DNA of 64,000 nucleotides from Eledone cirrhosa (lineage: Eukaryota): NCBI GenBank assembly GCA_964016885.1, contig OZ024743.1, forward strand, positions 1,612,001-1,676,000, read 5' to 3'. The notes under the pieces were generated by a model. It had not been told where the DNA came from and did not search any database. It worked only from the letters and a program-made list of their open reading frames with translations. This document shows, in pieces, positions 14,026 through 33,688 of this stretch (positions within the stretch are counted from its first letter, which is position 1; the number at the start of each line of letters is the position of its first letter). A program made the position numbers and the translations under genes.

Positions 14026-17000
14026 ATAAATTGAAACATAAATGAAAACGAAATTTCATTTCTCACTCTTAGTATGGCACTTACTTAAATGTAAGTATGC
14101 ATGTATACGTACATACATATATGTATACAGACGTACAGTAGCATGCACATATATATATATATATACATATATATATACATATGCATACAGGTACACATAC
14201 ATATATGCACGTATCAGTTTAGCGGCGCTAACGTCGCTTTGTTCGTTTGTAAACAAACTGAACAGCCTGAATTTATGCCATACGGTGTTAAGGCAACCAC
14301 GTCACCTTTTTGTTCAACACTGACACAGGAACGATGTACTAGTTTCAAGCTTGTTAGCTATCATCAGCACCGTTTACCCATCTGCCAGATAGTTGAACGT
14401 TCGAAAGTATATACTTTCCTTATGAAAATTAACGGCTGAGCAGCCTAATTTGCATATTGAGTGAGTTAAATCGGTCAGGCATACCGAAAACGATAAATTG
14501 AAACATAAATGAAAACGAAATTTCATTTCTCACTCTTAGTATGGCACTTACTTAAATGTAAGTATGCATGTATACGTACATACATATATGTATACAGACG
14601 TACAGTAGCATGCACATATATATATATATATACATATATATATACATATGCATACAGGTACACATACATATATGCACGTATCAGTTTAGCGGCGCTAACG
14701 TCGCTTTGTTCGTTTGTAAACAAACTGAACAGCCTGAATTTATGCCATACGGTGTTAAGGCAACCACGTCACCTTTTTGTTCAACACTGACACAGGAACG
14801 ATGTACTAGTTTCAAGCTTGTTAGCTATCATCAGCACCGTTTACCCATCTGCCAGATAGTTGAACGTTCGAAAGTATATACTTTCCTTATGAAAATTAAC
14901 GGCTGAGCAGCCTAATTTGCATATTGAGTGAGTTAAATCGGTCAGGCATACCGAAAACGATAAATTGAAACATAAATGAAAACGAAATTTCATTTCTCAC
15001 TCTTAGTATGGCACTTACTTAAATGTAAGTATGCATGTATACGTACATACATATATGTATACAGACGTACAGTAGCATGCACATATATATATATATATAC
15101 ATATATATATACATATGCATACAGGTACACATACATATATGCACGTATCAGTTTAGCGGCGCTAACGTCGCTTTGTTCGTTTGTAAACAAACTGAACAGC
15201 CTGAATTTATGCCATACGGTGTTAAGGCAACCACGTCACCTTTTTGTTCAACACTGACACAGGAACGATGTACTAGTTTCAAGCTTGTTAGCTATCATCA
15301 GCACCGTTTACCCATCTGCCAGATAGTTGAACGTTCGAAAGTATATACTTTCCTTATGAAAATTAACGGCTGAGCAGCCTAATTTGCATATTGAGTGAGT
15401 TAAATCGGTCAGGCATACCGAAAACGATAAATTGAAACATAAATGAAAACGAAATTTCATTTCTCACTCTTAGTATGGCACTTACTTAAATGTAAGTATG
15501 CATGTATACGTACATACATATATGTATACAGACGTACAGTAGCATGCACATATATATATATATATACATATATATATACATATGCATACAGGTACACATA
15601 CATATATGCACGTATCAGTTTAGCGGCGCTAACGTCGCTTTGTTCGTTTGTAAACAAACTGAACAGCCTGAATTTATGCCATACGGTGTTAAGGCAACCA
15701 CGTCACCTTTTTGTTCAACACTGACACAGGAACGATGTACTAGTTTCAAGCTTGTTAGCTATCATCAGCACCGTTTACCCATCTGCCAGATAGTTGAACG
15801 TTCGAAAGTATATACTTTCCTTATGAAAATTAACGGCTGAGCAGCCTAATTTGCATATTGAGTGAGTTAAATCGGTCAGGCATACCGAAAACGATAAATT
15901 GAAACATAAATGAAAACGAAATTTCATTTCTCACTCTTAGTATGGCACTTACTTAAATGTAAGTATGCATGTATACGTACATACATATATGTATACAGAC
16001 GTACAGTAGCATGCACATATATATATATATATACATATATATATACATATGCATACAGGTACACATACATATATGCACGTATCAGTTTAGCGGCGCTAAC
16101 GTCGCTTTGTTCGTTTGTAAACAAACTGAACAGCCTGAATTTATGCCATACGGTGTTAAGGCAACCACGTCACCTTTTTGTTCAACACTGACACAGGAAC
16201 GATGTACTAGTTTCAAGCTTGTTAGCTATCATCAGCACCGTTTACCCATCTGCCAGATAGTTGAACGTTCGAAAGTATATACTTTCCTTATGAAAATTAA
16301 CGGCTGAGCAGCCTAATTTGCATATTGAGTGAGTTAAATCGGTCAGGCATACCGAAAACGATAAATTGAAACATAAATGAAAACGAAATTTCATTTCTCA
16401 CTCTTAGTATGGCACTTACTTAAATGTAAGTATGCATGTATACGTACATACATATATGTATACAGACGTACAGTAGCATGCACATATATATATATATATA
16501 CATATATATATACATATGCATACAGGTACACATACATATATGCACGTATCAGTTTAGCGGCGCTAACGTCGCTTTGTTCGTTTGTAAACAAACTGAACAG
16601 CCTGAATTTATGCCATACGGTGTTAAGGCAACCACGTCACCTTTTTGTTCAACACTGACACAGGAACGATGTACTAGTTTCAAGCTTGTTAGCTATCATC
16701 AGCACCGTTTACCCATCTGCCAGATAGTTGAACGTTCGAAAGTATATACTTTCCTTATGAAAATTAACGGCTGAGCAGCCTAATTTGCATATTGAGTGAG
16801 TTAAATCGGTCAGGCATACCGAAAACGATAAATTGAAACATAAATGAAAACGAAATTTCATTTCTCACTCTTAGTATGGCACTTACTTAAATGTAAGTAT
16901 GCATGTATACGTACATACATATATGTATACAGACGTACAGTAGCATGCACATATATATATATATACATATATATATACATATGCATACAGGTACACATAC

Positions 17001-17204
17001 ATATATGCACGTATCAGTTTAGCGGCGCTAACGTCGCTTTGTTCGTTTGTAAACAAACTGAACAGCCTGAATTTATGCCATACGGTGTTAAGGCAACCAC
17101 GTCACCTTTTTGTTCAACACTGACACATATATATATATATATATATGTGCATGCTACTGTACGTCTGTATACATATATGTATGTACGTATACATGCATAC
17201 TTAC
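14026..17204 (-). mobile_element. Retrozyme-like tandem array A: 467-bp unit, ~6.6 near-identical copies plus short inverted tail
   Basis: Units start at 14026, 14493, 14960, 15427, 15894, 16361 and 16828 (ORF track repeats every 467 bp); array ends 17127; ~17128-17204 is an inverted piece of the unit; in (TA)n. Confidence 0.92.
14330..14374 (-). ncRNA. Minimal type I hammerhead ribozyme, array A (copies also at 14797, 15264, 15731, 16198, 16665; 45 nt each)
   Basis: aacggtg-CTGATGA-t agct aaca agct t-GAAA-ctag-TA-catcgtt. Helix I 7 bp, palindromic helix III ACUAGU, GUA site. Confidence 0.9.
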
Positions 17205-17822
17205 ATATATATTTATATATATATATATATATATATATATATATATATGTATGTATGTATATATATATATATATATATATATATATATATATATATATAT
17301 ATATATATATATATATATATAAATAAAATTTTCGTGCCCCATATCGGTATGTAGATATTTCGTCTCGTTTTCTTGTCCAATTAGGGTTTTCATCGTGAAT
17401 AGCTATCTTCCTTTAGATATTTAGTATTGATGCACAGGGAGGAATATTACTGTCTTTTAAAGCAACCGAAGCTGTAATAATCCCCAAAAGACAGTCGATG
17501 AGCAGCCAATGTCCATGTGCTTGTATTTCCCAAATAGTCTATTTCCTTTGTAAGCCCTACATATTTTTTTGTGATATTTTCCTTGTAAGCGACACAGCCT
17601 AATTTCAAAATCAAAACTGTTGATTAGTACTTCTGAGGTTCTTTCTCTTTCACTCACCCTCCCTCCGTCTATTTATCTATCTAGCTAGCTGTCTACCTAC
17701 CTATCAATCTGTTTATCTATCTATCTACCTGTTTATCTATGTATATATCTATCCATGTACCTATCTATCTATTTATCCATCTATCTATCCTTCTCTCTCT
17801 CTCTCTCTCTCTCTCTTTTTCT

Positions 17823-32448: not shown

Positions 32449-32493
32449 AATATTGCTGATGAGTTGTAACAACAACGAAACTAGTTCAATATT
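32449..32493 (+). ncRNA. Minimal type I hammerhead, array B right arm (copies at 32916, 33383)
   Basis: Same motif read directly on the + strand: aatattgctgatgagttgtaacaacaacgaaactagttcaatatt. Confidence 0.9.
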
Positions 32494-33688
32494 CCTTGTC
32501 TGGCTTTCTGGAGAATAGAGGAAAGGTGTTTCCTCAAAAACCAGTATGACTCTAAAAACCGGTTTGTCTGTGTGTTTACATACAGAATAGCTGGCCACTC
32601 ACAGTAAAGTGACCAGTGAAAAAACTTGGTACATCTACATATGTATACGTGTGTGTATTCATATACATACTAGTATTTCAGTATACATATATGGATGTAC
32701 ATCTTTAACTTAATTGTTTAAGCGTCAGTCATACAAAAGTGAGTTACAAACGAAACGAAATTTAATTTCGTTTCGTTATTTGTTTTTATCGTCTCCGTTG
32801 AACCGGTACTTACTCACACTCTATGCAAATTAGTCTGCCCACTACTAATTTTCATAGAAAAAGCATATAACGATATGTGCTTTTACGATTCTCTAGAGAG
32901 GCCGGAAGATAGGTAAATATTGCTGATGAGTTGTAACAACAACGAAACTAGTTCAATATTCCTTGTCTGGCTTTCTGGAGAATAGAGGAAAGGTGTTTCC
33001 TCAAAAACCAGTATGACTCTAAAAACCGGTTTGTCTGTGTGTTTACATACAGAATAGCTGGCCACTCACAGTAAAGTGACCAGTGAAAAAACTTGGTACA
33101 TCTACATATGTATACGTGTGTGTATTCATATACATACTAGTATTTCAGTATACATATATGGATGTACATCTTTAACTTAATTGTTTAAGCGTCAGTCATA
33201 CAAAAGTGAGTTACAAACGAAACGAAATTTAATTTCGTTTCGTTATTTGTTTTTATCGTCTCCGTTGAACCGGTACTTACTCACACTCTATGCAAATTGG
33301 TCTGCCCACTACTAATTTTCATAGAAAAAGCATATAACGATATGTGCTTTTACGATTCTCTAGAGAGGCCGGAAGATAGGTAAATATTGCTGATGAGTTG
33401 TAACAACAACGAAACTAGTTCAATATTCCTTGTCTGGCTTTCTGGAGAATAGAGGAAAGGTGTTTCCTCAAAAACCAGTATGACTCTAAAAACCGGTTTG
33501 TCTGTGTGTTTACATACAGAATAGCTGGCCACTCACAGTAAAGTGACCAGTGAAAAAACTTGGTACATCTACATATGTATACGTGTGTGTATTCATATAC
33601 ATACTAGTATTTCAGTATACATATATGGATGTACATCTTTAACATATATATATATATACATATATATATATATATACATATACATATA

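Follow-up and report, generated by a model that had tools for sequence, protein, structure and literature searches.

Two tandem arrays with inverted arms

The window analyzed here, a 64,000-nt stretch of the Eledone cirrhosa genome (contig OZ024743.1), contains two tandem arrays, A and B, with a GC content of approximately 35%. The main arm of array A lies on the minus strand (14026..17127) and is composed of six 467-bp units plus 300 bp (period 467, 6.6 copies), with all six full units being 100% identical and the 3′ end (unit position 467, at 14026) abutting a short run of TA. This is followed by an inverted arm on the plus strand (17127..17206), which covers approximately unit positions 325–404 and stops at a second fixed 3′ end, after which (TA)n runs from 17205 to 17325. 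The main arm of array B (27483..32236, minus strand) contains ten units of 467 or 466 bp plus 84 bp, with anchor spacings of 467 in nine of ten cases and 466 in the other, and its 3′ end at 27483 enters a 6-kb (TA)n tract (21337..27485). Its inverted arm (32237..33643, plus strand) comprises 3.0 units and stops at approximately unit position 387, then (TA)n. A preliminary description of this DNA had reported the common 467-bp period and the homologous 3′ point at which both main arms stop against TA, and both were borne out; the inverted arms were absent from it. No ORF of at least 200 aa was found inside the arrays, and an ORF for reverse transcriptase (RT) and GIY-YIG endonuclease is absent from the units. 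It should also be noted that RT-bearing LINE remnants with TA tails adjoin both arrays (18891–20240 and 33525–35894). A B unit with its head-to-tail joint is present in contigs of four runs, although such contigs are uninformative on expression.

Every unit carries a type I hammerhead of 45 nt (7+7+14+10+7), the length given in the preliminary description, and in both main arms it lies on the minus strand. In array A it recurs every 467 bp in six copies (14330..14374), while array B has ten minus-strand copies (28246..28290) and three plus-strand copies, the first of these at 32449–32493. The CUGAUGA/GAAA/UH core and helices I–III are present in all six A and all thirteen B copies, and GAAACUAGU, the GGUA leader and the covarying helix I can be read in both arrays. 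The A hammerhead has a U.U at the base of helix II, a palindromic helix III (ACUAGU) and a predicted cleavage site after GUA; that of B has a G-C at the base of helix II and predicted cleavage after GUU. Against Rfam HH9 the A hammerhead scored 18.5 bits (E 0.043) and that of B 37.7 bits (E 2.9e-8, copy at 29163–29234), both below the gathering threshold of 52, at which Rfam gave zero matches within the window. Of the axolotl hammerheads, HHR_Amex1 resembles A and B in having a helix III of one pair with a palindromic tetraloop as its cap, and HHR_Amex2 shares the U.U at the base of helix II with A (Cervera and de la Pena 2020, PMC7229834). Upstream of the ribozyme, an octamer, ATGCAAAT (14448..14455, minus strand), is kept in A, B, the related subfamily C and the distant family E; it lies within a predicted hairpin and may serve as a pLTR promoter site as well.

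Homology of units A and B

A and B had been thought to differ over most of the unit, but a global alignment gave 303 identical columns of 506, with 39 gap columns on each side. The sequence blocks named earlier as common to both are present, and segments outside the hammerhead also beat dinucleotide shuffles. None of 300 shuffles reached the real score for the 5′ part, the hammerhead or the purine-pyrimidine (RY) rod, with 2/300 reaching it for the tail and 9/300 for the middle. At the level of sequence comparison, units A and B are shown to be homologous and of common ancestry.

Two fixed 3′ ends in TA

Among 64 A-type ends called, 22 fall at unit positions 407–411 (22/22 into TA), 30 at 452–467 (26/30 into TA) and 12 elsewhere. 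For B, 41 ends were called, with 16 at 390–399 (14/16 into TA), 23 at 464–467 (20/23 into TA) and two elsewhere. Taken together, TA follows 82 of the 91 A and B ends that fall on the two fixed sites. The 5′ junctions of both are at scattered positions. Target-site duplications are unreadable inside TA. The sequence between the fixed 3′ ends, referred to here as the tail, is 60–80 nt in A and B: approximately 63 nt in array A (14026..14088, minus strand), where it contains the 3′ strand of the conserved helix and a terminal hairpin (both predicted), and approximately 80 nt in the window copy of B (27483..27562, minus strand), with some 67–75 nt at most other B loci. Family E ends at approximately 143–148 and 176–180, giving a 35-nt tail.

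A tandem arm with a head-to-head inverted, 5′-truncated arm was seen in both window arrays and at many further loci. Using strict motifs inside a 3-kb stretch per locus, the two ends were found on opposite strands at 9/33 loci for A and 8/22 for B, with one end or none at the remainder. One A locus (L146) was found to have the main end on both strands. Dozens of loci have their ends at these fixed positions, and on that ground a fold-back artefact of the assembly was rejected.

A pair of fixed 3′ ends leading into (TA)n, together with an inverted arm, is the tail signature of Penelope-like elements (PLEs). Partial tandems with a head-to-head inverted 5′-truncated copy, a tail confined to one end, targets that are AT-rich or (TA)n, and a hammerhead in the repeat are likewise features of EN+ PLEs, namely PAc and Poseidon (PMC11167929), Neptune, Nematis and Naiad (Craig et al., 10.1101/2021.04.23.441226) and the Adineta Penelopes (PMC3846280). 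Unlike these, A and B have no ORF and the entire unit is pLTR-like; their tails are also longer than the 30–40 nt usual for EN+ PLEs, a range within which that of E lies.

Copy number and array composition

The octamer-plus-hammerhead motif of the A and B types gave 11,595 matches in the 3.0-Gb genome, and the corresponding counts were 12,756 for C, 4,195 for B′ and 1,319 for E, with reversed-pattern controls giving 0 matches. With more than 10,000 dispersed matches, the earlier claim of a mobile non-coding element is supported. B′ was rejected as a third independent family of 466–469 bp, being identical to B at 456 of 467 positions.

In long arrays, variants are common to non-adjacent units, a pattern expected from unequal exchange or gene conversion, and it could be argued from this that the units are ordinary satellite DNA spread at the DNA level with the ribozyme as a fossil. 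This is highly improbable in view of the short, dispersed insertions whose fixed ends lie in TA, the compensatory helices and a catalytic core that is invariant despite 40% unit divergence; exchange at the DNA level probably only remodels arrays after insertion. General dimer periodicity is not supported either: lag-2 units were closer than lag-1 units in 10 of 18 runs, with the reverse in seven and one tie, in a sample for which several arrays had been chosen because they alternate. A clear abab pattern was seen only in L300 and L301, while L310 and L311 hint at blocks of three and four units. Both arms of array B show near-alternation of a variant at unit position 43. A single monomer circle as the only template fits the identical units of window array A, but not B or a 31-unit array.

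Unit length

The preliminary description proposed a constraint on RNA length or structure and named unit length across the family as a check. The distribution was found to be broad, with periods of 420–541 bp across relatives, which speaks against the length part of the proposal. In a position-ordered sample of 12 arrays (25 periods), A-type periods ranged from 464 to 541 with a median of 499, and 4/25 lay within 465–469. Subfamily C has periods of 420–433 (18 periods), the distant family E has 437 and 444, and most B units are 461–481 bp. Without the RY rod, A is 350 nt and B 383 nt, so that the equal totals are due to offsetting indels. As only two of the 12 position-ordered A arrays are near 466, the odds of a chance match are approximately 1 in 6.

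A real constraint holding a replicating RNA near 467 nt, with longer A copies due to (TA)n slippage after insertion, would account for the tightness of B, in which 18 of 20 array groups are at 465–469 (overlapping loci left unmerged), for the B′ arrays at 461–470, for the youngest A arrays (window, L073–076) at 466–467 and for the balanced A/B gaps. It should be noted that B and the youngest A subfamily both lie at 466–469, which counts against a chance reading of the length. However, subfamily C has no long TA tract and reached its high copy number at 420–433 bp, and the E and A-type periods together with the chance-match odds also make this constraint very unlikely. The common 467-bp period of A and B is likely a coincidence, and a conserved 467-nt length is not real.

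Predicted RNA fold

The structural part of the proposal fared better. The circular monomer of A has a predicted minimum free energy (MFE) of −152.8 (z −9.9) and that of B −150.8 (z −9.7), with 40 shuffles each; without the RY rod the z-scores are −5.3 and −7.9. Outside the rod, double substitutions keeping pairing numbered 19/24 and 17/27 against 7.9 and 7.6 expected, these counts being based on three lineages and on MFE structures derived from the same sequences. Such values were reached in 0 and 1 of 5000 shuffles, and slid controls gave 3–10. On these predicted folds, a constraint on RNA structure in the A/B family is supported. A highly self-paired predicted circle is also described for metazoan retrozymes (PMC7229834), that of A and B being a prediction from DNA sequence.

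This branched, highly paired fold, together with an antisense strand which also folds well (z −5.2 and −5.8), would suit a viroid-like circular RNA with RNA-to-RNA replication that is integrated only occasionally. The antisense strand of the A and B units has no hammerhead motif, its folding follows from the sense hairpins, and the abundance is accounted for by genomic copies in the tens of thousands, making this reading exceedingly improbable. The word replicating in the preliminary description is best understood to mean retrotransposition with enzymes borrowed from PLEs rather than RNA-to-RNA replication.

A probable Penelope-like helper

The same genome contains a young PLE family with a 4,202-bp unit, a hammerhead, and RT and GIY-YIG domains (Pfam), of which 131 scored copies are 99–100% identical over 300 aa. 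Its ends at unit positions 156 and 217–232 lie in TA at 6/7 places. Only neighbouring non-coding copies were recovered when homology to A and B was searched for by BLASTN in 42 GIY-YIG loci and by nhmmer in 84 PLE loci, which represent a handful of families among 10,595 GIY-YIG candidates. Searches for an autonomous parent with hammerhead-variant patterns gave zero matches or mostly mutated A, B or C copies. With no homologous autonomous element in the PLE loci examined, the helper is inferred from architecture. In vitro, a PLE protein has been shown to cut both strands of AT-rich DNA and to extend them, with reverse transcription starting at two internal sites, one on each side of the tail (PMC11167929).

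Movement of the units by a LINE of the AP-endonuclease type, in the manner of a SINE and with inversions from twin priming, would be in keeping with the LINE remnants beside both arrays. A common 3′ end with A or B was not seen in these by eye, though, and twin priming from TA would be expected to start variably inside the UA-rich rod, whereas the second end keeps a fixed position immediately beyond this rod. The two-end layout also marks the GIY-YIG PLEs of this genome, and a LINE is very unlikely as the helper.

Class, proposed mechanism and significance

A and B are very probably diverged families of one non-LTR retrozyme, likely copied into (TA)n by the RT and GIY-YIG endonuclease of a PLE, with an equal period that likely arose by chance. 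The class, namely non-LTR retrozymes as non-autonomous PLE derivatives, is already known, and both class and proposed helper are those given by Li et al. for retrozymes (Li, Clavereau, Pollet, bioRxiv 10.64898/2026.07.22.740005). As described for metazoan non-LTR retrozymes, the units are tandem, low in GC and carry one type I hammerhead each, though at 420–541 bp they are longer than the approximately 150–450 bp given there (PMC7229834); unit lengths of 51–972 bp are given across families by Li et al. A further difference is that PMC7229834 describes neither an inverted arm nor a pair of fixed ends, the word "inverted" having 0 occurrences in its main text. Non-autonomous elements of Chlamys such as MRC1 (Craig et al., 10.1101/2021.04.23.441226) have no hammerhead, unlike A and B, and in general have 3′ sequence in common with an autonomous family, whereas no such partner of A or B was found in the PLE loci examined.

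Transcription of the arrays is suspected, perhaps starting in the octamer/TATA-like region that lies upstream of the hammerhead. The latter, probably as a dimer via the palindromic helix III, would cut the multimer into monomers and oligomers, some of which may become circular. A PLE protein would then bind the structured region around the tail and nick both strands of a TA tract, with reverse transcription starting at two internal sites bracketing the tail and the two cDNAs joining 5′-to-5′ to give the tandem and inverted arms. The ribozyme core, the helices and both start sites would be under selection, with unit length drifting in the range of approximately 420–540 nt. Activity of the A and B hammerheads cannot be assumed, since cleavage was seen in only one of nine Xenopus retrozyme dimers in the experiments described by Li et al.

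More tentatively, and with rather less likelihood than the above, these retrozymes might be circular-RNA passengers, with the Penelope RT rolling round circles from two structure-defined sites and writing whole arrays in one step. If so, the circles could be monomer, dimer or higher, and the conserved helix and start-site motif of A, B, C and E would be the RNA signal recognised by PLE proteins; the system would then amount to a natural map of how PLEs recognise their templates, and would allow retrotransposition from circular templates to be tested directly.

The entry of animal retrozymes into DNA has been an open point. PLE helpers were proposed earlier from co-occurrence and pLTR homology, and the evidence presented by Li et al., mainly for vertebrates, comprises these together with phylogeny; here it is the insertion footprint, a homologous pLTR not being found in the PLE loci examined. 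New here are a genomic footprint linking retrozyme insertion to PLE reverse transcription, with tens of thousands of copies carrying the PLE-specific tail and inversion, and a conserved predicted fold around the start sites. As the same genome harbours an autonomous PLE that is young and has this footprint too, the hypothesis of a PLE helper is testable with purified protein, and from the four diverged lineages covariation in the RNA can be mapped around both RT start sites.

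Layout of arrays A and B

Within the window (G000:C4:1612001-1676000 of a 3.0-Gb animal genome), TRF placed array A at 14026-17127 and array B at 27483-32236, both with a 467-bp period, and a third block at 32237-33643 was found to be the reverse complement of B. Array A contains six full units, all identical, while the unit spacing of array B is 467 in nine of ten cases and 466 once, in agreement with the shared period given in the preliminary description. The units had also been held to differ over most of their length; they were instead alignable end to end (303/506 identical, 39 gap columns per side), with each of five segments outscoring most shuffles. 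It should be noted that an N gap (window 17823-18022) separates array A from the first LINE, so the true A-to-B distance is uncertain. The inversion junction of B (window 32225-32250) is a near-perfect palindrome, and both B arms begin at approximately the second RT start site; three units and 6 bp make up the inverted one.

Hammerhead motifs

Every unit carries on its minus strand one type I hammerhead, 45 nt long as previously described. In it, helix I (7 bp) is followed by CUGAUGA, helix II (14 nt), GAAACUAGU and a nucleotide that is A in array A and U in array B, with the 3' strand of helix I closing the motif. A window search gave no Rfam match at the gathering level; local matches to the Rfam hammerhead model HH9, both below gathering, were obtained for B (E 2.9e-8) and A (E 0.043). 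In the HH9 alignment the GGUA leader corresponds to the consensus bulge preceding helix I and the AACA loop to loop 2, and by analogy these are probably the usual tertiary-contact elements, such contacts being described for type I motifs (PMC7229834). Helix III has one base pair and a palindromic loop, resembling that of axolotl HHR_Amex1, and helix II of array A has a U.U at its base, as in HHR_Amex2; both axolotl motifs are described as cleaving better as dimers (PMC7229834). A U-A pair of helix II in B is A-U in the related family B'. A 58-bp tandem repeat (window 60081-60278, 3.4 copies) contains CTGATGAG without a clear hammerhead.

Unit length and RNA structure

The equal period had been attributed to constraint on RNA length or structure. 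A joint pattern of the ribozyme and the conserved octamer upstream of it gave 11,595 matches genome-wide and 0 in the control. Among the first 100 matches by position, A-type periods ranged from 464 to 541 (median 499, SD 24; 25 periods, 12 arrays), with 4 of 25 within 465-469 and the spread coming mostly from the (TA)n-containing rod. Periods were 420-433 in family C, an older branch of A (350/469 identical to A; 12,756 matches; 18 single-unit periods in the first 100 matches, one 850-bp double spacing excluded), and 437 and 444 in the distant family E, which the A/B/C profile detects with E-values as low as 3e-11. Family B varies little (median 467, range 446-481 among 54 units, overlapping loci unmerged); B' (4,195 matches) is 456/467 identical to B and is thus not independent of it. 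Lengths of 466-469 are found both in B and in the youngest A arrays, which favours a length constraint. However, the unit-length distribution, proposed earlier as a genome-wide check, was broad across the arrays sampled from the related families, and with the rod removed A and B measure 350 and 383 nt. On the period range among A, C and E and these differing rodless lengths, a constraint at 467 is rejected, and the equal A and B sums are best read as chance.

Circular folding of the A and B units, each taken between successive cleavage sites, gave -152.8 and -150.8 kcal/mol respectively (z -9.9 and -9.7; 40 shuffles each); rodless folds gave z -5.3 (A) and -7.9 (B) (60 shuffles). The helix order is the same in the predicted folds of A, B and C, and one predicted helix spans the DNA-level unit junction and so could form only in a circle or multimer of the RNA. 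Outside the rod, the A structure in B has 106 alignable pairs, of which 24 are changed on both sides and 19 of these still pair, against 7.9 expected (0/5000 shuffles); the reciprocal comparison kept 17/27 double changes against 7.6 expected (1/5000), and the A structure in C 7/10 against 1.2, these counts resting on few lineages and MFE-derived structures. Slid controls of the A/B comparison kept 3-10 pairs, and 30-40 pairs per comparison were broken with the rod included. One helix recurs across the families (A GUAUGGCA/UGCCAUAC; C UACGGCU/AGCCGUA; B GUAUGACU/AGUCAUAC; E ACAUGGCU/AGCCAUGU), its 3' strand sitting in the tail, the sequence between the two fixed 3' ends. The low fold z-scores and the excess of compensatory pairs support the earlier suggestion of a structural constraint on the modelled A/B RNA.

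Arms, ends and template

Two arms meeting head to head make up each array A and B in the window, and many loci elsewhere. Their junction points are scattered, and their outer ends lie at fixed positions and continue into (TA)n. Among 64 called A ends, 22 were at 407-411 (true end approximately 404, the remainder being TA), 30 at 452-467 and 12 elsewhere; the 41 B ends comprised 16 at 390-399, 23 at 464-467 and 2 elsewhere. At the two fixed sites, 82/91 ends continued as TA. With strict motifs, two ends on opposite strands were seen at 9/33 A loci and 8/22 B loci, the others having one end or none within the stretch examined; at one locus (L146) the main end occurred on each strand. Either arm can be the long one, and that of a 31-unit B' array (G000:C1:5738327-5752443) ends at the second, tail-less site.

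Family E was found because a copy with an inverted arm lies in the window (~61570-61960; 1,319 exact motif matches genome-wide); it shows the same two-end pattern, with a 35-nt tail. Upstream of its ribozyme are repeated octamer-like motifs and a CCAAT box, which at the sequence level suggests that the octamer may act in a promoter.

This layout of head-to-head arms and a tail is described for Penelope-like elements (PLEs) by Craig et al. and Arkhipova et al. (PMC3846280). Frangieh et al. (PMC11167929) describe a PLE protein that cleaves the two strands of AT-rich DNA and extends each of them, with RT starting at two internal RNA sites, the tail being the sequence between, and hammerhead cleavage not needed for insertion in vitro. 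Mobilisation of the A/B repeats by PLEs is supported. Further hammerhead-like families were seen in TA tracts (L100, L108, L113, L117 and L122-L131), in some cases with inverted arms and with tails of 40-60 nt; PLE-dependent non-coding families appear to be numerous in this genome.

The homogeneous array A fits the expectation from one monomer circle. Array B has, in both arms, a variant at unit position 43 that comes close to alternating between units, and the units of the 31-unit B' array are a mosaic of shared variants. Two arrays are of abab type (L300, C1:19314300-19317800; L301, C1:14043800-14051900) and two loci (L310, L311) gave hints of 3- and 4-unit blocks, with no general dimer period among 18 runs compared. 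The arrays may stem from a multimeric transcript or from oligomeric circles, and later exchange may have contributed.

Candidate helper element

The genome contains 10,595 GIY-YIG candidates, of which 150 were scored; the loci examined mostly have a CX4CXXC motif ahead of the nuclease, described as a Neptune/Nematis feature (Craig et al.), and TA is found at the end of many. Both RT and GIY-YIG were recognised in three long ORFs, with RT scores just below the Pfam cut-off. One very young PLE family (131 scored copies, 99-100% identical over 300 aa) has a 4,202-bp tandem unit at G000:C9:38018500-38028400 (L229) and is present at 130 further places, with a 775-aa RT+GIY-YIG frame open in many copies and preceded by a second long frame. 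Its hammerhead has the U.U and palindromic helix III of A, its terminal repeat (pLTR) has CCAAT and TATA-like motifs, and its ends lie in TA at unit 156 and 217-232 in 6/7 places, the seventh showing one end within the stretch examined. Since it has no significant sequence in common with A or B, it is architecture, not sequence, that makes it a candidate helper.

LINE remnants with RT lie in the window at 18891-20240 and 33525-35894 (both plus strand), followed by long tracts of (TA)n at 21337-27485 and 35970-38362, respectively. A third LINE (39921-43259, minus strand) has RT, AP endonuclease and a frame of 1112 aa that is open; a 592-aa frame upstream of it (43386-45164) had no Pfam match.

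Relation to known retrozymes

A and B show the features of non-LTR retrozymes at the level of sequence, and would form a very abundant addition to that class. PMC7229834 suggests that retrozymes derive from PLEs, and bioRxiv 10.64898/2026.07.22.740005, whose supplements might list such elements or ends, argues for this origin. No published account of the A/B family or of a retrozyme tail footprint was found in a search confined to the literature, with few subscription papers in it. The retrozyme class and the proposal of its PLE origin are already known, and by comparison with this literature it is the A/B family that is new.
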